Virus genome (UHGV): UHGV-0110025
Length of the DNA stretch: 30,952 nucleotides
Strand: one strand, 5' to 3'
From: a virus
The translations under genes and the position numbers were made by a program. How positions within the stretch are numbered: position 1 is the stretch's first letter; every line of letters begins with the position of its first letter. Shown here piece by piece: positions 50-30,952 of this stretch. The notes below the pieces were generated by a model that was not told the DNA's origin, ran no database searches, and saw only the letters and a list, made by a program, of their open reading frames with translations.

Positions 50-1099
50 TTACGCAACCTCTGCCGCCACGTTGTCGCCAATACACAGTGACAACGGATT
101 CAAGGTGACAGCTTGTTCAAGATGGTCAGGAGCAAAGTGCGCATACTTCATTGTTTCACGAATATTTGCGTGACCGAGTATCTTCTGGAGTACAAGGATA
201 TTGCCGCCATTCATCATAAAATGCGCGCCAAAGGTGTGACGTAAAACGTGCGTTTTCTGCCCTTCAGTCAATTCAATGTTTGTGAGTTTGAGCATCTTCT
301 TAAAGTCCTGATAGCAGGGCTTGAACATTCTTCCCTGACGTTCGGACAACTCGTCATACAGCCATTTAGGAATCGGAACCGTGCGATTCTTCTTACCTTT
401 GGTTTTGGTGAAAGTCAGCTTGCAGGGGGAAAGTTGGGGACGTGTAAGTCTCTCAGCTTCTCCCCATCGTGCGCCAGTAGCCAGGCACACCTTAACAATC
501 ATAGTAAGATTTTCTTTGCCATATTGTTCACAGGCTCGGAACAGCTCCGGGAGCTGAGACAAAGTTAGCCAGGACATTTCTTTCTCAGCTTCTTTGAATA
601 CACGAATCCCGTCCAGTGGATTGGGTAAACTCCATTCACCTAATCGCCGCAGTTCATTGAACACAGCTTCGAGGTATTGCTGTTCGCGATTGACAGTTAT
701 AGGTTTGGCGATCCATTTCGCCGGGTCTTTGTGATAGCCGTTGTCTATTTCGCCACGTAATCGACGGTCACGGTAATGAGCCCAATCTTTAGCGGTAAGA
801 CGAGATGCAATAGGGTCGCCCAACCCGTTACATACAATTTGAAGCTTAGCTAACCGCGACTTACTGGCGACCAACGCCTGTCCATGTAAATTATGCCAAA
901 GCTGGATAATCTCACTTAAGCGTCGGCGGTCTTCTTTCTTGCCGAGCCACGGCTTATCTTCACTCTCGCTTTTCGTAAATGCTTCGAATGCCTCGGCCTC
1001 ACCTTTGGTATTGAATTGCCGACGTATTCGCCGCCCTTCTCGCCCATTAGGATAAAGCTCACATAACCATTTGCCATTTTTTTGCTTACTTATAGTCAT
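50..1099 (-). CDS. int: Tyrosine site-specific integrase (P2/186-type)
   Basis: ORF 50..1147; start taken at the second Met (ATG 1099, MTISKQKNGKW...). C-terminal catalytic region LRHTFGAHF...GHANIRETMKYAH carries the R/H-x-x-R-H...Y tyrosine-recombinase signature. Lies at the prophage edge downstream of cI as in P2. Confidence 0.9.
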   Translation of the reverse strand: MTISKQKNGKWLCELYPNGREGRRIRRQFNTKGEAEAFEAFTKSESEDKPWLGKKEDRRRLSEIIQLWHNLHGQALVASKSRLAKLQIVCNGLGDPIASRLTAKDWAHYRDRRLRGEIDNGYHKDPAKWIAKPITVNREQQYLEAVFNELRRLGEWSLPNPLDGIRVFKEAEKEMSWLTLSQLPELFRACEQYGKENLTMIVKVCLATGARWGEAERLTRPQLSPCKLTFTKTKGKKNRTVPIPKWLYDELSERQGRMFKPCYQDFKKMLKLTNIELTEGQKTHVLRHTFGAHFMMNGGNILVLQKILGHANIRETMKYAHFAPDHLEQAVTLNPLSLCIGDNVAAEVA

Positions 1100-1121
1100 A
1101 ATGTCACCGAGGCAACTCTTA

Positions 1122-1460
1122 TCATTCGCAAAGTGCTGTCGCAGCATCCATTACGGGATCCAAAGGAATTTTTACTCCTTCATAATCCGGGCTATCTTTC
1201 CAAACAGTATCAATATCGCTCCCCTCAAGCTTTCCAGACTTTACACCATCAATAGCAAACCCATTTAATGGGTATCGGTCATCTGTTGCTTTGTCGTACA
1301 CAAAGGCATATCTACCATTAACACAAGACACCGTAGCTTTTTCAAAAGTTAACGGCCAATCATCACCAAACTTAGCACCGTCTAAATCCTGTGTTTTTTC
1401 AGCGGCTGATGCACCGAAAGAAAGTGAAAGAAATAAAGCTAAAAAAAGCTTACGTTTCAT
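1122..1460 (-). CDS. Small exported protein with cleavable signal peptide (moron between cI and int)
   Basis: Start at ATG 1460 (MKRKLFLALFLSLSFGASA|AEK...), AAGGGA Shine-Dalgarno 4 nt upstream. N-terminal basic-hydrophobic-AxA signal peptide and two Cys in the mature part. Sits 8 nt after the cI stop and 22 nt before the int start, lower GC than neighbours. Confidence 0.6.
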   Translation of the reverse strand: MKRKLFLALFLSLSFGASAAEKTQDLDGAKFGDDWPLTFEKATVSCVNGRYAFVYDKATDDRYPLNGFAIDGVKSGKLEGSDIDTVWKDSPDYEGVKIPLDPVMDAATALCE

Positions 1461-1468
1461 AATGTCCC

Positions 1469-2305
1469 TTATACGTGTTTTTCCAATGTGAAAATTACAG
1501 CACCTACTGGTGTGATATCTGTAATGCTGCATTCAAACTCGGCAGACTTATTTGACAACCTGACTTTTCCGCCGGGAAGACGAATTACATCAAAAACATC
1601 AAGAGCGCCGTCAATATCAATTAACCAACGCCCATTACTTATGTTCGAAGCAGAACGGTTGACAAGCCAAGAGGCTCCAACACCTTCAACAAAAATCAAC
1701 TCCTCTGAGTCAGAGGGTATCATCGAGGGGTCTGGATGCCATTCGCCAGCGTCCTTAAGCTCACCCGCTTCAAGGCGAAATTTTTTAATTGAAAAACTTG
1801 ATGTGACCATTTCTCTGTTAGTTCGCATTTGCCCCTTGCCGGTTGCTAACCATTCCAGCGAAACACCAGTATCAAGGGCACAAGTAACAACTACATCGCC
1901 TGGGAAAAAATCACGCCGAACCCATGTGCTAATTGTTCCAGATGATATACCGAGTAAATCACCCAGCTCCTTTTGCATAGAAAAACCGTAAGCATCAAGG
2001 ATGCGTCTCAGAACAGGTTTACCACCTGAAGCCATGACCTTTTCATAAAGCTCTTTGCCCTTCAGGGTCGCACGTGAAGAGTTTGCTTTTGCAAGCTCCC
2101 CTGTCACTAACCATCCGATATCTGCGCCCGTTTCAATAGCACATTCAACAAATACATTGCCCGGAACGCTATCTCTGGCAAGCCAACTGCTTATGTTGTT
2201 GGCATAAATACCAAGTTTTTCGCCAAGTTCTTTTTGCGAGCTAAGTCCATAAGCCGAAAGGATTCTTTCGATAGCCGGAGCCGCACCATCTCCAAATTTA
2301 GCCAT
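1469..2305 (-). CDS. cI: CI-type immunity repressor (186 CI-like) with tandemly duplicated N-terminal HTH domain
   Basis: Two internal repeats: ...ERILSAYGLSSQKELGEKLGIYANNISSWLARDSVPGNVFVECAIETGADIGWLVTGE and ...RRILDAYGFSMQKELGDLLGISSGTISTWVRRDFFPGDVVVTCALDTGVSLEWLATGK, each matching the phage CI-repressor HTH pattern. Divergent from the early lytic operon, upstream of int. Confidence 0.8.
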   Translation of the reverse strand: MAKFGDGAAPAIERILSAYGLSSQKELGEKLGIYANNISSWLARDSVPGNVFVECAIETGADIGWLVTGELAKANSSRATLKGKELYEKVMASGGKPVLRRILDAYGFSMQKELGDLLGISSGTISTWVRRDFFPGDVVVTCALDTGVSLEWLATGKGQMRTNREMVTSSFSIKKFRLEAGELKDAGEWHPDPSMIPSDSEELIFVEGVGASWLVNRSASNISNGRWLIDIDGALDVFDVIRLPGGKVRLSNKSAEFECSITDITPVGAVIFTLEKHV

Positions 2306-2425
2306 GTATCGCCACCAAAATTAATTTTCGCCATTGCAAAATTAAATTTCGCGAACTAAAGTGATGATTATCAACCACGATGCACATCAATGCAGTTCAC
2401 TACAAACAACAGGAGATAATGCGAT
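2306..2425. promoter_or_regulatory. Lysis/lysogeny switch region: divergent cI / early-lytic promoters and operators
   Basis: 120-bp intergenic region between divergent cI and the apl/cox-like gene. Candidate rightward promoter: -35 TTGCAA (2334-2339), 17-nt spacer, -10 TAAAGT (2357-2362). AGGAG Shine-Dalgarno at 2412-2416 precedes ATG 2426. Confidence 0.5.
2317..2352. repeat. Two direct-repeat candidate operator sites AAAATTAA(T/A)TTTCGC spaced 21 bp
   Basis: AAAATTAATTTTCGC at 2317-2331 and AAAATTAAATTTCGC at 2338-2352. The first contains a perfect 12-bp palindrome AAAATTAATTTT. The second overlaps the spacer of the candidate rightward promoter. Confidence 0.5.
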
Positions 2426-2797
2426 ATGTCAGATGCAAAATCAATCTCGACGCATGATTCGCAAAACTCACAAAATCAAACTGTGCTGTTAGATCCGGCT
2501 CAGTTTGATGCCATCGTTACCGCTATGCTGCCAGCTCTGCAGACAATGATCCGCTCCGCTATGTCAGACACAATGACAGTGAAAGACTTTGCCGCCACTC
2601 GCGGTGTAAGCGAGCGTCTGGTCTGGCAATGGCTTGATGAGGGAATCCTCCTCAAAGCTCCAACTAAAGACTTTTCCAACAAGGAAGAGGCTGGAAAACG
2701 AAGCCGCACCCTCGTAAACGTGAAAGCATGGCGCGACAAACTAACCCAGCAAGCGATTGATTGTCGCTACATCGACCACCGCATCGCTCTTAACTGA
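2426..2797 (+). CDS. Apl/Cox-like early regulator / excisionase candidate (HTH protein)
   Basis: First gene of the rightward early operon, divergent from cI, the position of 186 apl / P2 cox. Central HTH-like segment MTVKDFAATRGVSERLVWQWLDEG. Good SD. At 123 aa it is longer than Apl/Cox, so the N-terminus or identity is uncertain. Confidence 0.55.
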   Translation: MSDAKSISTHDSQNSQNQTVLLDPAQFDAIVTAMLPALQTMIRSAMSDTMTVKDFAATRGVSERLVWQWLDEGILLKAPTKDFSNKEEAGKRSRTLVNVKAWRDKLTQQAIDCRYIDHRIALN

Positions 2798-2829
2798 ATT
2801 TGATTATGCAAGTTAGAGGGAATTTAACC

Positions 2830-3339
2830 ATGTTTGATTTTCAGATTTCTAAACATCCTCACTATGACGAAGCGTGCCGGGCTTTTGCGCAGCGTCACAA
2901 CATGGCGAAGCTGGCCGAGCGTGCGGGTATGAACGTTCAAACGTTACGTAACAAGCTCAACCCAGAACAGCCTCACCAATTCACACCGCCTGAATTGTGG
3001 CTGCTGACTGACCTGACCGAAGACTCAACCCTCGTTGATGGCTTTCTGGCGCAAATACATTGTCTGCCATGCGTGCCGGTTAATGAGCTGGCTAAAGAGA
3101 AATTGCAGTCTTATGTGATGCGCGCAATGAGTGAACTCGGCGAACTGGCGAGCGGTGCGGTATCAAATGAACGTATGACCTCTGACCGCAAACACAGCAT
3201 GGTTGAGAGTGTTAATGCAGGCATCCGCATGTTGTCTCTGTCGGCGCTGGCGTTACAGGCGCGTCTACAGGCTAACCCGGCAATGTCGAGCGTGGTTGAT
3301 ACCATGACCGGCATCGGCGCAACATTTGGTTTGGTATGA
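2830..3339 (+). CDS. cII: CII-like lysogeny establishment regulator (186 CII family)
   Basis: MFDFQISKHPHYDEACRAFAQRHNMAKLAERAGMNVQTLRNKLNPEQPHQFTPPELWLLTDL... matches my recollection of the 186 CII family. Start placed at the internal Met (ATG 2830); the six-frame ORF begins at 2800. Confidence 0.8.
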   Translation: MFDFQISKHPHYDEACRAFAQRHNMAKLAERAGMNVQTLRNKLNPEQPHQFTPPELWLLTDLTEDSTLVDGFLAQIHCLPCVPVNELAKEKLQSYVMRAMSELGELASGAVSNERMTSDRKHSMVESVNAGIRMLSLSALALQARLQANPAMSSVVDTMTGIGATFGLV

Positions 3340-3346
3340 GGTGTTT

Positions 3347-3547
3347 ATGCTGAAAAATGAACCCTCATTCGCATCTCTGCTCGTTAAACAAAATCCAGGT
3401 ATGCATTACGGTCACGGCTGGATCGCGGGTAAAGATGGTAAGCGCTGGCACCCGTGCCGCTCTCAGTCTGATTTACTGGCTGGCCTCTCTACTCAAAAGC
3501 TGGGGGAATCATGGCTATCGAAGCTGTTTCCGCGACTATTCCGCTAA
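3347..3547 (+). CDS. fil: Fil-like small protein (phage 186 Fil family, cell-division inhibitor)
   Basis: MLKNEPSFASLLVKQNPGMHYGHGWIAGKDGKRWHPC... follows cII as in 186. Start ATG 3347 preceded by GAGGTG. Confidence 0.6.
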   Translation: MLKNEPSFASLLVKQNPGMHYGHGWIAGKDGKRWHPCRSQSDLLAGLSTQKLGESWLSKLFPRLFR

Positions 3548-3849
3548 AAGCGGGTGAACGTCTGGCCGGTCTCAATCATGTAGCTGAATTGCGCGCGAGA
3601 TATTGGGGCGATAGTTGGAAAGAGGTTGAGCGCTTTGTCGATGATATGCGCGATAAACGTGACTCTCAATTTGAAGAAAATAATCGGGCGCTGGCCGCTA
3701 TTTTCTTTCTGGCAAAAATACCGGCGGCTCGTCATGAGCTCGAATTAAGTGAGCTGACTACTGACGAGAAAAAAGCGCTTATTACAGCGATGAATCATTT
3801 TCGTGCAGTAGTGAGCTTATTTCCCAAACGGCTAACCATGCCGAATTAA
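3511..3849 (+). CDS. Hypothetical early-operon protein
   Basis: 112-aa ORF in the early operon between fil and the DUF2732-like gene. No motif I recognise. Overlaps the fil 3' end, so the start is uncertain. Confidence 0.45.
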   Translation: MAIEAVSATIPLKAGERLAGLNHVAELRARYWGDSWKEVERFVDDMRDKRDSQFEENNRALAAIFFLAKIPAARHELELSELTTDEKKALITAMNHFRAVVSLFPKRLTMPN

Positions 3850-3915
3850 CCAAAACAGAAATTAATGGCGTAAACCCGCCGGGCATTTTATTGCCCAAAA
3901 TCAGGAGAGTTAGTT

Positions 3916-4143
3916 ATGCGTAATACCGAACCCCGTAGTTTTAATACTGATAGTGACACGCTGGCCGTGCTGCTGACAGATGCAAAAAAAGAAGAACGCA
4001 AAGACCGCGCACTCGCCGTTTCAATCCGTCTTGAGGCGCTGGCTATCCATATCACTAAAGAGGGCATGAACGGCACCGAAGCCGCTGAACTGCTGCGCCG
4101 TGAGGCCACCCGCTACGAAAACGAATCACAGGAGCTGCACTAA
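3916..4143 (+). CDS. Small acidic early protein (DUF2732-like, P2-family)
   Basis: 75-aa ORF with strong SD (AGGAGAG) upstream. Composition and position resemble the small conserved ORFs preceding gene A in P2-like phages. Family assignment is from memory only. Confidence 0.5.
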   Translation: MRNTEPRSFNTDSDTLAVLLTDAKKEERKDRALAVSIRLEALAIHITKEGMNGTEAAELLRREATRYENESQELH

Positions 4144-4364
4144 TGGCCGACGCAATGGATTTAGCACAACTGCGCGAGCAGGAAGACCGCGAGCGCCACA
4201 TCAGCAACGCGCGCAGCCGTATAGCAGCGTCCTCTCCTTTCCTCTGCGAAGAATGTGACTCACCAATCCCGGAAGCTCGCCGTGCTGCAATTCAGGGGGT
4301 GGCATTTTGCGTGACTTGTCAGCAAATCGCAGAGCTAAAAAACAAACACTATCGGGGGGTATAA
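4143..4364 (+). CDS. TraR/DksA-family C4 zinc-finger protein
   Basis: Four Cys in a C-x2-C ... C-x2-C arrangement (CEECDSP...CVTCQQ) in a 73-aa protein. ATGA start/stop overlap with the upstream ORF. Confidence 0.7.
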   Translation: MADAMDLAQLREQEDRERHISNARSRIAASSPFLCEECDSPIPEARRAAIQGVAFCVTCQQIAELKNKHYRGV

Positions 4365-4365
4365 A

Positions 4366-6588
4366 TTGGCTGTTCAATTCGCTTATCCGTGGAATGCTCC
4401 ACGATCGGCTATAGCCAGCCCATACCTTACTTATAAGCAACAGCATCGCCGCGACCGTATGTTCGCGGCGATGCTGCATGCTAAAAAGGTGCTTTCTCTC
4501 CAGCCCGACTGCGTGCGGTTAGATGTTTATCGCACTGCGGCAGTGCTGGAGCAAAATCAGGGCATTCAACGAGCCAATGCCTTTTTGATCAGCTTCTGCA
4601 AAAAGGCATTGCCGCGTCTTGAATTGGTCGCAAAAAAATACGAATGCGCGGGTATCAACAGCAAGGTATCAACCTCTGTTTTTGGAAGTCATTTTGATAC
4701 CCAGCTTATGCAATATCTGGCGTCACGCATGGTTAATATGGTCGCCCGATATAACCGCCTCCCGGATATGTCGCGCGCTGATGTTGACCTGTTGGCCGCC
4801 GATATTGCTAATTTCATTCGTGGTGAACTTGCCAACATTAATGACCACGGATTCGGCGAGCTTAAAACGCTGTACACCTGGTATAATCGTGCTGGCTTTA
4901 TTTCCCTCCAGTTCAACGTTATCCCCCCCCATTGGGATCGGGTTGCAAAAAAATATGTTGGCGCGGATGAAATCGCACCGGCTATCGCCAAGATGTTTAA
5001 CGATGGGTGGTGGCGTGGTCGTTTGCGCCGGGTTGCAGCTACGTGGCGCGAACACCTGCAAATTGCAGTCGGCAACGTCAGCAAGAAAAAAAACACCTAT
5101 GCGAGTAAAAACTGCGTGACTGACTGGCGTGAACAAAAGCGCCGAACTCGTGAATTTCTCAAAGGTCTGGATCTCGAAGACGAAGACGGCAACCGTATCA
5201 GCCTGATTGAAAAATATGATGGCTCAGTTGCTAACCCTGCGATTCGCCGCTGTGAGCTCATGACTCGCATTCGTGGGTTTGAAAACATCTGTAATGAGCT
5301 CGGTTATGTCGGTGAGTTTTACACTCTGACCGCGCCGTCGAAATATCACGCCACGACTAAAGCCGGTTACCGTAACAGCAAATGGAGCGGTGCCTGCCCG
5401 GCTGACACGCAAAACTATCTAACTGATATCTGGGCGCGTATCCGTGCCAAACTGCATCGGGAAGATGTCCGTATTTTCGGTATTCGTGTCGCCGAGCCCC
5501 ATCACGACGGTACTCCACACTGGCACATGCTGATGTTCATGCTGCCGGAAGATGTTGAATATGTTCGCTCCATCGTCCGTAAATACGCGTGGAAAGAAGA
5601 CCGCCGCGAACTGAAAAGCGATAAGGCAAAAAAAGCACGTTTCCACGCCGAGTCCATTGACCCGGAGAAAGGCAGCGCAACCGGCTATGTTGCTAAATAC
5701 ATATCAAAAAATATCGACGGTTATGCTCTCGATGGTGAAACCGATAATGAAAGCGGTGAACTGCTGAAAGAGACAGCCCCCGCCGTTTCAGCATGGGCTT
5801 CGCGCTGGCACATCCGTCAGTTTCAGTTTATCGGTGGTGCGCCGGTGACGGTTTACCGTGAGTTGCGTCGCCTCGCTGATACCGAAACCGCGCACGGACT
5901 GAGCGTTGAGTTTGCCGCCGTCCATGATGCCGCCGACGCTGGTGACTGGGCTGGTTATGTTAATGCGCAGGGTGGACCGTTTGTCCGTCGCGATGATTTA
6001 CAGGTGCGCACACTGTATGAACCACGTACCGAGCTTAATCAGTACGGTGAGGAAACGGTATGTATTAAGGGGGTCTACGATTCCTCCATAGGTGCAGGTA
6101 GCCCGATTTTAACCCGGCTCACTCAGTGGAAGATTGTTCCGAAGCATGCTGTTGATTTGGCCGTTGACCTTCAGGACGGCAAAGCCGTCCCTCGGAGTTC
6201 TGTCAATAACTGTACGGGAAGTGAAAGCGATCCACCGATACTGGATTTAACAAAACCACAGAGTCGGCGCGAAAGACGAGAGCTGACCAACCGACTCAGG
6301 AAGCAAAAACCAGCAATACGGCGAAAATTCGTCCACGGAATGGATGAGCAAAACGCAGCTATAGCGAAAACTATCGACGAGATACATCTGACAACCAGCA
6401 TCACAATCAGCCGGGGCGAAGCCCTGCACCTGATGGCAGGTGGGAAAAGCTGTTTTGATGGCAAATGGCTAAGGGGAACATCCAAAGGGGAGATATTTTC
6501 CACTGTCCCATCGAACCAAGCTAAAGCTAGTAAAATCCTCAATCGTGTTGCAGCGTTGGTAGAAGCATCAAAGTTAATAGATGATTAA
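4366..6588 (+). CDS. A: Replication initiation endonuclease (P2 gpA family, rolling-circle HUH nickase)
   Basis: 740-aa ORF with a histidine-rich metal-binding region EPHHDGTPHWHMLMF and a downstream tyrosine motif GYVAKYISKN, typical of gpA initiators. Apparent TTG start at 4366 after a G-rich SD; an in-frame ATG lies at 4459. Confidence 0.9.
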   Translation: MAVQFAYPWNAPRSAIASPYLTYKQQHRRDRMFAAMLHAKKVLSLQPDCVRLDVYRTAAVLEQNQGIQRANAFLISFCKKALPRLELVAKKYECAGINSKVSTSVFGSHFDTQLMQYLASRMVNMVARYNRLPDMSRADVDLLAADIANFIRGELANINDHGFGELKTLYTWYNRAGFISLQFNVIPPHWDRVAKKYVGADEIAPAIAKMFNDGWWRGRLRRVAATWREHLQIAVGNVSKKKNTYASKNCVTDWREQKRRTREFLKGLDLEDEDGNRISLIEKYDGSVANPAIRRCELMTRIRGFENICNELGYVGEFYTLTAPSKYHATTKAGYRNSKWSGACPADTQNYLTDIWARIRAKLHREDVRIFGIRVAEPHHDGTPHWHMLMFMLPEDVEYVRSIVRKYAWKEDRRELKSDKAKKARFHAESIDPEKGSATGYVAKYISKNIDGYALDGETDNESGELLKETAPAVSAWASRWHIRQFQFIGGAPVTVYRELRRLADTETAHGLSVEFAAVHDAADAGDWAGYVNAQGGPFVRRDDLQVRTLYEPRTELNQYGEETVCIKGVYDSSIGAGSPILTRLTQWKIVPKHAVDLAVDLQDGKAVPRSSVNNCTGSESDPPILDLTKPQSRRERRELTNRLRKQKPAIRRKFVHGMDEQNAAIAKTIDEIHLTTSITISRGEALHLMAGGKSCFDGKWLRGTSKGEIFSTVPSNQAKASKILNRVAALVEASKLIDD

Positions 6589-29250: not shown

Positions 29251-29736
29251 ATGATGCTTGCTCTCGGAATGTTTGTGTTTGAACTTCGCACCCTGCCTTA
29301 CCAGTCGATGCAGCATTCGAAAGATTATCGCTGGATGTCCAATGACCGGGTGGGTAAACCACCTGCCTATCAGTTTCTTGGCGAGGGGGAAACCTCTATA
29401 CAGCTTGCTGGTACGCTATACCCCGCTATCACTGGCGGTTGGATCTCACTAAAGGCTGTAGAGGTGATGGCCAATGAAGGCAGAGCGTGGCCGTTGATAG
29501 AGGGAACCGGAAATATCCTCGGGATGTATATCGTCGATAAAGTATCGACTACACGCACCGAGTTTTTCAGTGATGGTGCGGCCAGAAAGATTGATTTCAC
29601 GCTTTCGCTAAAACGGGTTGATGAATCGCTGACAGAGATGTTTGGTGACCTGAATAAACAGGCCAGTGAGCTTCTCGGCTCTGCCGGTAATTTGACAGAT
29701 AAACTGCAGGGTATGCCCGGAGGTTTCACTGCATGA
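29251..29736 (+). CDS. U: Tail protein U (P2 gpU family)
   Basis: 161-aa ORF following T, in the conserved position. Confidence 0.85.
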   Translation: MMLALGMFVFELRTLPYQSMQHSKDYRWMSNDRVGKPPAYQFLGEGETSIQLAGTLYPAITGGWISLKAVEVMANEGRAWPLIEGTGNILGMYIVDKVSTTRTEFFSDGAARKIDFTLSLKRVDESLTEMFGDLNKQASELLGSAGNLTDKLQGMPGGFTA

Positions 29737-30902
29737 TAACGGGGATGGCAATTGACGCCGGTGCCAGCCTTGCACCGGCATTTATGTTGACGCTGAACAG
29801 CCAGGACATTACCAGCAATTTTAGTGACCGATTGATTTCTCTCACCATGACCGATAACCGGGGTTTTGAGGCTGACCAGCTCGATATTGAGCTTGATGAT
29901 ACCGACGGGAAAGTTGAGTTACCCCTGCGCGGGGCAGTGCTGACGCTGTGGCTTGGCTGGCAGGGCTCGGCGTTGCTGAATAAGGGGGATTTTACGGTCG
30001 ATGAGATTGAGCACCGGGGAGCGCCTGACACCCTGACCATCCGGGCGCGCAGCGCGGACTTTCGCGGCACGCTAAATTCCAGGCGTGAAGAGTCATGGCA
30101 TGACACCACCATCGGAGAACTGGTCAGCACCATCGCAAAACGCAATAAACTGACGGCCAGTGTCGCTGATTCACTGAAAAAAATCCCGGTACCGCATATC
30201 GACCAGTCGCAGGAGTCCGACGCGGTGTTTCTGACCCGGCTAGCTGACCGAAACGGAGCTGCGGTGTCAGTGAAAGCGGGGAAATTGCTGTTTCTGAAAG
30301 CCGGTAGTGCGATGACGGCCAGCGGCAGAGCCATCCCGCAAATGACGCTGACCCGTAGCAATGGTGACCGTCATCAATTTGCTATTGCCGACCGTGGGGC
30401 TTATACCGGCGTAACGGCAAAATGGTTGCACACTAAAGACCCGAAGCCGCAAAAGCAAAAAGTGACGCTGAAACGCCAGCCAAAAGAGAAACACCTACGC
30501 GCACTGGAGCACCCGAAAGCAAAGCCTGTCAGCAAAAAGACAAAGGCCAAAAAAGAGCAGGAGGCTCGCGAGGGTGAGTATATGGCCGGTGAAGCCGATA
30601 ACGTGCTGGCGCTGACAACGGTCTACGCATCAAAGGCGCAGGCGATGCGTGCCGCTCAGGCTAAGTGGGATAAACTGCAGCGAGGCGTTGCGGAGTTTTC
30701 AATCACACTGGCGCTAGGGCGAGCGGATTTATTTCCTGAGACGCCTGTACGTGTGTCGGGCTTTAAGCGCGTAATAGACGAACAGGTATGGTTAATCAGT
30801 AAAGTAACTCACATTCTGAATAATAGTGGCTTCACGACGGGGTTAGAGCTTGAGGTTAAGCTATCTGATATAGAGTACAGCTCAGAGGAAAGCGAAATAT
30901 AA
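29733..30902 (+). CDS. D: Tail protein D (P2 gpD family)
   Basis: 389-aa ORF overlapping the U stop, last gene of the tail operon within the window. Confidence 0.85.
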   Translation: MITGMAIDAGASLAPAFMLTLNSQDITSNFSDRLISLTMTDNRGFEADQLDIELDDTDGKVELPLRGAVLTLWLGWQGSALLNKGDFTVDEIEHRGAPDTLTIRARSADFRGTLNSRREESWHDTTIGELVSTIAKRNKLTASVADSLKKIPVPHIDQSQESDAVFLTRLADRNGAAVSVKAGKLLFLKAGSAMTASGRAIPQMTLTRSNGDRHQFAIADRGAYTGVTAKWLHTKDPKPQKQKVTLKRQPKEKHLRALEHPKAKPVSKKTKAKKEQEAREGEYMAGEADNVLALTTVYASKAQAMRAAQAKWDKLQRGVAEFSITLALGRADLFPETPVRVSGFKRVIDEQVWLISKVTHILNNSGFTTGLELEVKLSDIEYSSEESEI

Positions 30903-30952
30903 AAAAGCAAATCATAACTTGCAAATGCAATTTTAGAGTTTATTATTCCCTC

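Follow-up and report, generated by a model that had tools for sequence, protein, structure and literature searches.

How does a phage repressor make use of two DNA-binding domains that are carried on one chain? We addressed this question for the CI repressor of UHGV virus genome UHGV-0110025, whose sequence of 30,952 nucleotides (nt) was analysed as a whole and is referred to below as the window. An earlier note on this DNA had described a tandem duplication of the helix-turn-helix (HTH) domain in CI together with direct repeats in the switch region, and had read the two domains as a single-chain dimer with which one polypeptide would bind the repeats. Our analysis points to a division of labour instead, to which we give a probability of roughly 0.6. 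The N-terminal domain, HTH1, would read the immunity-specific operators at the early promoter pR, and the second domain, HTH2, would read conserved operators that flank the switch and lie on the promoter of the late activator.

The repressor carries two helix-turn-helix domains

The gene and its domains, all on the minus strand, are located as follows (aa, amino acids).

1469-2305, minus strand: cI, 278 aa, in the order HTH1, linker, HTH2, linker, 186-type C-terminal domain (open reading frame, Pfam, alignment with 2fjr)
2096-2281, minus strand: HTH1, aa 9-70, recognition helix region YANNISSWLARD, variable and proposed to set immunity (limits by hmmsearch)
1835-2020, minus strand: HTH2, aa 96-157, recognition helix region SSGTISTWVRRD, near-invariant (identities across classes)
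1472-1792, minus strand: C-terminal oligomerisation domain of the 186 CI type (PF16452; Foldseek match 2fkd_A)

Pfam matched PF07022 (Phage_CI_repr) in two stretches of the protein (E 3.3e-48) and PF16452 (Phage_CI_C) at aa 172-271 (E 8.7e-21). Residues 7-70 and 92-155 align without gaps and are identical at 34 of 64 positions (53%, E 7e-26). The tandem duplication of CI-type domains with about half of the residues identical was therefore correctly recognised before, except that the coordinate 1835 given as its start is the end of HTH2, cI itself spanning 1469-2305. HTH2 and the C-terminal domain together (aa 97-271) align with the whole of the solved 186 CI (2fjr residues 9-182; phmmer matched 2fjr and 2fkd), and therefore HTH1 is an addition at the N-terminus. 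By its domain content CI is a variant of the 186-type CI repressor (PF07022 and PF16452) with a second, N-terminal HTH. With two HTHs and 278 aa it departs from the canonical single-HTH architecture of ~190 aa per chain, and its length and the two Pfam families also set it apart from the C repressors of the P2 type. The C proteins of P2 and W-phi comprise ~100 aa with a single HTH, are unrelated in sequence to CI, contain neither PF07022 nor PF16452 and come without distal operators; P2 C and 186-type CI have been described as not alignable (PMC3448106).

The structure was predicted with AlphaFold2 for the CI monomer, and the predicted fold thus covers the monomer only. The model contains three folded domains and low-confidence linkers at residues 71-82 and 159-169 (predicted local distance difference test, pLDDT, <50 in the linkers; predicted template modelling score, pTM, 0.39). 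Its C-terminal domain superimposes on 2fkd_A with a template modelling (TM) score of 0.87 and a root mean square deviation of 1.9 Å in Foldseek. Alignment and prediction, which were among the checks proposed by the earlier note, agree on the duplication, but the model gave no confident geometry or packing between HTH1 and HTH2, a result that neither supports nor excludes a pseudo-dimer of the two.

Repeats at the early promoter

Four features of the region between cI and the first early gene, apl, are needed here.

2315-2331: O1, the copy nearest cI, CCAAAATTAATTTTCGC, adjoining the cI ribosome-binding site (CCACC, which is GGTGG on the minus strand)
2336-2352: O2, GCAAAATTAAATTTCGC, a 17-bp pseudo-palindrome over the -35 and spacer of pR
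2334-2362, plus strand: candidate early lytic promoter pR, TTGCAA (2334-2339), 17 nt, TAAAGT (2357-2362), 8/12 of the consensus
2416-2444, minus strand: candidate lysogenic promoter pL, TTGATT, 17 nt, CATTAT, 8/12 of the consensus, convergent with pR and positioned as the annotated pL of 186

A repeat search returned a 16-nt direct repeat, CAAAATTAATTTTCGC (2316-2331) and CAAAATTAAATTTCGC (2337-2352), whose copies are 94% identical and spaced by 21 nt, in agreement with the repeats announced for the switch region. They are the sole copies with 0 mismatches in the 31-kb window. For comparison we assembled 86 loci with a tandem CI by scanning genome contigs, where the scan gave 25 loci, and viral contigs, where it was more productive. 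These loci were assigned to classes by immunity type, class A being that of the window and class B that of PSP3. Conservation of the repeats in related prophages, one of the points on which the first interpretation had been staked, was found in 11 class-A loci, in which the 3' CGC of O1 is mostly TGC or TAC.

A default promoter scan of 2200-2900 returned nothing, and pR was seen by a relaxed scan and by comparison with relatives. It lies at the position of the TTTACA-17-TATAGT/TAAAGT promoters of other immunity types (PSP3, SI22 and Midge classes, 10/12) and of the annotated 186 pR beside the cI start. The second repeat had been placed in the spacer of an early promoter; it does overlap the spacer, but covers the -35 as well, and the promoter matches the consensus at only 8 of 12 positions. 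Because the repeats are non-random, kept in relatives of the same immunity and situated on the early promoter, O1 and O2 are very probably CI operators, as judged from the sequence. That they are a chance product of low-complexity, AT-rich DNA with no operator role is extremely improbable. The G+C content of the region is indeed 33-37%, but none of 2000 shuffled versions of the 120-nt intergenic region contained a 15/16 match, the repeats are replaced wholesale when HTH1 changes, and they stand where 186 has three annotated CI sites.

Each repeat unit is itself a 17-bp pseudo-palindrome. O2, written as GCAAAATT-A-AATTTCGC, has 7/8 complementary pairs, and the arms of O1 and O2 also score as an inverted repeat in the repeat search (12 nt, 92% complementary). 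O1 and O2 of the window align at 15/17 positions directly and at 12/17 when inverted, and in most class-A relatives, where O1 ends in TTTTTGC and not in TTTTCGC, the values are 14/17 and 13/17. Since the arms score both ways, the word 'direct' is a description only and no asymmetry is demonstrated. A spacing of two turns does not mark out tandem HTHs, as it has been published as usual for 186 CI, whose operators at pR are two turns apart, whose dimers lie side by side on a wheel and which also binds pB (PMC3675496). For the C repressors of P2 and W-phi, which act in immunity in the P2 family, the operators have likewise been described as direct repeats, separated by two (22 nt) or three helical turns, that flank or overlap the early promoter (PMC1904263).

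The -10 of the candidate pL lies just before the apl start codon and its -35 within apl. Over this -35, at 2434-2444, we observed TGCAAAATCAA, 11 nt that nearly repeat the left part of O2 and that may bind CI weakly.

HTH1 varies with the promoter DNA and HTH2 does not

Across the 86 loci the recognition helix of HTH1 occurs in 13 variants that covary with the adjacent promoter DNA, and that of HTH2 has essentially one form, SSGT[IV]STW[VI]RR. The 57 nt adjoining the cI start are 96% identical between loci with the same HTH1 helix and 31% identical when the helix differs. Since HTH1 covaries with the pR-adjacent DNA, HTH1 and the promoter-proximal DNA form, by this comparison, an immunity cassette. 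At the DNA level the cassette starts just past HTH2, as megablast matches to other classes end at window position 2062. HTH2 is 79-97% identical to that of the window in the main immunity classes and 68% in one class-H variant, even where identity has dropped to 34-36% in the C-terminal domain and to 50-58% in HTH1.

The form of the pR repeats differs between the classes. In class A they are two tandem pseudo-palindromes, and in class D direct repeats, ACTCAWWWTCGATTTA, with a spacing of 21 bp. An inverted repeat of ~24 bp centred on the -35 hexamer occurs in classes C, E, H, H' and I, and in these five independent classes its axis falls between +0.5 and +1.5. Both arms of these repeats are symmetric and variable, which suggests that they are read by pairs of identical HTH1 domains rather than by a composite of HTH1 and HTH2. 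Four class-H loci (L106, L100, L103, L110) showed an additional outer symmetry, TAGAT...ATCTA, around the inverted repeat, giving a dyad of ~42 bp that may be contacted by all four HTHs of a dimer. A general operator of ~42 bp with four half-sites for a dimer of tandem heads was considered on this basis and not adopted, as the outer symmetry is absent in other classes.

These comparisons bear directly on the single-chain reading, in which the two HTHs of one chain form a (hetero)dimer and each operator combines one half-site for HTH2 with one for HTH1 in a set orientation, so that operators in series look like direct repeats facing one side of the helix. We consider it unlikely. Several observations speak for it: O1 and O2 of the window are slightly more alike directly than inverted, the class D repeats are direct as well, three direct repeats with a TGTGA core occur beside the tandem CIs of Klebsiella phages, and the left half of O2, ATTGCAAAA, resembles the HTH2-type half-site CTTGCAAAA. 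But an invariant HTH2 predicts an invariant half-site in all classes, and none was seen beyond the -35 itself. The -35-centred repeats of five classes are inverted with both arms variable, direct and inverted scores are about equal in most class-A relatives, and the linker of ~12 residues is disordered in the AlphaFold2 model without confident domain packing. Nor does a single-chain dimer account for the conserved CTTGC-N4-GCAAG sites to which we turn below. One polypeptide reading direct repeats is thus hard to reconcile with units that are pseudo-palindromes in class A and with the inverted repeats found in their place elsewhere. For class A in particular, a composite site of HTH2 and HTH1 at O2 is conceivable.

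Engineered single-chain 434 repressors also have two HTHs per chain and place both heads on one operator, without a 186-type oligomerisation domain. They differ from CI in that their heads share one operator, whereas the evidence from the window points to separate targets. The Wolbachia prophage protein Wmk resembles CI in having two XRE-type HTHs in one chain, and it lacks a 186-type oligomerisation domain.

A conserved inverted repeat at the positions of distal 186 CI sites

According to its GenBank record, 186 has further CI sites away from pR: FL within cI, FR between apl and cII, and two on pB, the first of them over the -35 directly after gene D. In the window we found candidate operators at the homologous positions.

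2082-2095, minus strand: FL-like candidate operator within cI, CTTGCAAAAGCAAA, 1 mismatch to CTTGCAAANGCAAG, encoding the linker L-A-K-A-N
2799-2812, minus strand: FR-like candidate operator, CTTGCATAATCAAA, in the gap that separates the stop codon of the apl-like gene from the start of cII, positioned as the annotated FR of 186
30916-30933 (motif 30918-30931): candidate operator, AACTTGCAAATGCAATTT, 1 mismatch, immediately past the stop codon of gene D and covering the TTGCAA -35 of the promoter of the late activator (ogr/B)

A scan of the window for the inverted repeat gave exactly two hits at <=1 mismatch, 2082-2095 and 30918-30931, where ~0.04 would be expected by chance by our own arithmetic. 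At <=3 mismatches ACTTGC-N4-GCAAGT was not enriched window-wide (11 hits versus 15 expected), and only the hits with <=1 mismatch and their positions are meaningful.

The FL-like site is present in 72 of the 86 loci at a fixed distance from cI. It codes for the linker L-A-(N/K)-A, and in 45 distinct DNA sequences its codons are frozen as CTT (45/45), GCA (41/41) and GCA (34/35), whereas between three and six synonymous codons are in use for each Leu, Ala and Gly nearby. Class D has retained the site at a displaced position, ~8 nt away and on the opposite strand. Frozen synonymous codons and retention of the displaced site therefore indicate a constraint at the DNA level. The FR-like site was found in 70 of 86 loci, at +470 to +540 from the cI start, with the exact variant CTTGCATAATCAAA in 38. 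Both sites also occur in class H, despite divergent neighbouring genes. Upstream of ogr, PSP3, SI22, Midge and 613R3 have AACTTGCAAATGCAA without any change, and together with the window they represent four immunity classes. The same 15-mer occurs in at least 120 loci in IMG/VR, 6 of them P2-like among those listed, a count that is uninformative on specificity.

The FL-like site also marks one edge of an exchangeable cassette of ~2062-2362, which comprises HTH1 and ~55 bp of operator DNA and has the conserved pR -10 region as its other edge. The conserved patches on both sides could be recombination junctions.

Conserved inverted repeats thus occupy all three positions homologous to the 186 FL, FR and pB sites, as putative CI binding sites. 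The sites of 186 carry its own motif, ATTCAC-N5-GTGAAT, whereas the window has CTTGC-N4-GCAAG there; the operator type consequently changes with the HTH type of CI at three positions. This co-change is, by analogy with 186, the strongest argument that they are CI sites read by HTH2. The pR operators of the window are unrelated in sequence to this type, which is common to phages of different immunity. The phages PSP3, SEN1, SW9/SI22, Midge, RCIP0057 and 613R3 likewise encode a tandem CI, in which HTH2 and the C-terminal domain are nearly identical to those of the window, and share its early genes; the PSP3 group has FL-like, FR-like and ogr-promoter sites as in the window, and its HTH1 and the ~55 bp beside cI belong to different immunity classes.

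A CI with an HTH2-type domain alone was found in Rahnella, Ewingella and related genomes (L016-L034), which contain a cross-species prophage remnant with a single-HTH CI, DUF5347-like and TraR-like genes and a DAHP-synthase neighbour. The single HTH is 82-84% identical to HTH2 and has an identical recognition helix, and 18 of the 19 loci carry AACTTGCAAATGCAAGTT, or a sequence close to it, in the spacer of their early promoter (pR). The remnant is without int, apl or cII genes and looks like a domesticated repressor module. On this comparison the likely target of HTH2 is the conserved CTTGC-N4-GCAAG inverted repeat, a sequence distinct from O1 and O2.

HTH1 might instead be the sole working DNA-binding domain, HTH2 being a conserved structural spacer or a surface on which a partner docks, such as an antirepressor resembling Tum of 186, and the motif belonging to another factor or to recombination junctions. 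A protein partner could indeed account for the conservation of HTH2, and the FL-like site does lie at the mosaic junction of the immunity cassette. In Rahnella and Ewingella, though, CI has no DNA-binding domain other than the HTH2-type one and the motif stands in the cI-adjacent promoter where apl and cII are absent, and the three sites coincide with experimentally defined positions of 186 CI sites. We therefore regard a non-binding HTH2 as quite improbable. We hold an equally low opinion of mixed binding, by which both heads would act at every site, for instance HTH2 on -35-like TTGCA/TTTACA sequences at pR with specificity added by HTH1, and HTH1 binding weakly at FL and FR. TT.CA is common to the -35 regions of all classes and to the HTH2 half-site, and TGCAAAATCAA over the pL -35 repeats the left part of O2. 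Likeness to a -35 hexamer is uninformative, however, and a window-wide pattern search detected no HTH1-type (O1/O2) sequence near FL, FR or the ogr promoter.

Points that weigh against the division of labour

Several observations count against a strict assignment of HTH1 to pR and of HTH2 to the conserved sites. The pairing of HTH2 with the CTTGC motif is drawn from one comparison, that with the Rahnella and Ewingella remnants. The FR-like site of the window itself has 3 mismatches to the consensus, and ~14-16 of the 86 loci, about one in six, have no FL-like or FR-like site at the thresholds used. CCATTGCAAAATTAAATT, the left side of O2 in class A, matches the operator of the Rahnella locus L016 at 13/18 positions; as it resembles an HTH2-type operator, HTH2 may also touch pR. 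Classes B (PSP3) and D are without a clean dyad at pR and the repeat spacing in class C is 18 instead of 21, so the picture of an HTH1 pair on a palindrome is not uniform. A dyad-axis scan with 12-pair arms gave nothing significant for class A or class B, and a uniform rule of one palindrome on the -35 was rejected because of that result. Finally, one CI dimer would bring four HTHs, which would have to be accommodated on a wheel of the 186 type, a 14-mer built as a heptamer of dimers.

A model based on phage 186

The likeness to 186 extends from the two Pfam families to the gene order (int and cI leftward, apl and cII rightward), the pR operators abutting the cI start two DNA turns (here 21 nt) apart, and the convergent pR and candidate pL. 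186 has three operator copies at pR and one HTH, the window two copies and two HTHs. According to Shearwin, Dodd and Egan (2002, as cited in PMC1904263 and PMC3675496), the single HTH of 186 CI reads two different types of recognition sequence.

Under the division of labour, a 186-type repressor composed of an HTH and a wheel-forming C-terminal domain would have gained a second, N-terminal HTH. CI would dimerise via its 186-type C-terminal domain, and pairs of HTH1, one CI dimer per pseudo-palindrome, would probably occupy O1 and O2 two DNA turns apart as in 186. Since the -35 and spacer lie under O2, CI bound there would block RNA polymerase at pR and so shut off the early lytic operon. Pairs of HTH2 on the FL-like and FR-like sites could provide looping or long-range cooperativity, as FL and FR do in 186, and on the ogr promoter they would keep the late genes off directly, as at the pB of 186.

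Prophage setting

By gene content and order the window is a PSP3-like E. coli prophage of the 186 branch of the P2-like phages. Its closest cultured relatives are the Escherichia phages 613R3 and Midge and the Salmonella phage PSP3 (84-89% DNA identity over 1100-4400), and the cI region matches an E. coli chromosome at 99.9% identity. The neighbouring genes are the following.

50-1147, minus strand: integrase
1122-1460, minus strand: DUF2511/YebY-family secreted (lipo)protein gene, between int and cI as in PSP3 and relatives
2426-2797, plus strand: Apl/Cox analogue, 123 aa, first gene of the early operon (open reading frame; gene order int-cI-apl-cII as in 186)
2831-3339, plus strand: cII, CII of the CP76 family (PF06892)
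29733-30902: tail gene D, at the right end of the window

The DUF2511/YebY-family gene is probably an accessory gene of the cI-int operon that is expressed in lysogeny. A Pfam search of the product of the Apl/Cox analogue gave no match, and the PsP3 version of this first early gene was a singleton in a 2011 study. Between pR and the candidate pL (2381-2400) we observed ATGCAC and ATGCAG repeats with 10-bp phasing that are kept in all PSP3-like classes. By analogy with Apl of 186, which binds direct repeats one turn apart at the equivalent position, the Apl analogue may bind to these repeats. After cII the rightward early operon continues with DUF5347, DUF2732 and TraR-like zinc finger genes and an ORF (open reading frame) of 740 aa, which we take from its size, that of P2 gpA, as a putative replication gene. 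The late activator ogr comes after gene D in 613R3, PSP3 and Midge.

Distribution and previous descriptions

A protein search returned 836 relatives of CI at E <= 1e-5. The best 120 of these 836 are all 267-287 aa long, which is the tandem length; they are spread over many Enterobacterales, and 'phage repressor protein CI' is the only annotation they carry. The tandem architecture occurs in prophages of Klebsiella, Enterobacter, Salmonella and E. coli, and 44 of 5426 complete E. coli genomes contain a DNA-level match to cI. A literature search found no paper describing the tandem HTH of CI; the PsP3 CI was characterised as having 'a longer C-terminal domain' in the comparative study from 2011 (PMC3448106). 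The tandem-HTH CI thus appears to be common in Enterobacterales prophages and undescribed in the searchable literature.

Far more divergent tandem CIs (~30% identity) were found in Klebsiella phages. In Kp4860-7 and ST11-OXA48phi15.3 (L006, L007) the two HTHs are 56-61% identical to each other and 35-42% identical to HTH1 of the window. These pairwise identities suggest a second, independent duplication or gene conversion. The TGTGA-core repeats in their pR regions, three in direct orientation, are irregularly spaced (29 and 20 nt).

Implications for immunity in PSP3-like prophages

The 186 switch is among the best-studied alternatives to that of lambda, and the CIs of PSP3-like phages appear to give each operator type a domain of its own. 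We would put at even odds the fuller proposal of a natural two-headed repressor, in which a fast-evolving HTH1 sets the immunity at pR and a frozen HTH2 reads an operator shared across the family at FL, FR and the late activator. If this is true, immunity would be swapped as a small cassette of HTH1 and ~55 bp, from the FL-like site to the pR -10, leaving long-range cooperativity and late control untouched. Phages of differing immunity would still cross-repress one another's late activator, and prophages of different immunity in one cell would show a partial cross-regulation that is testable. The family would also offer a ready two-specificity scaffold for synthetic circuits. As the architecture is common, it bears on the annotation of the immunity groups of these prophages. 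With the two specificities split between two domains, their repressors would also be a natural experiment in the evolution of immunity specificity while looping and late-gene control stay intact.

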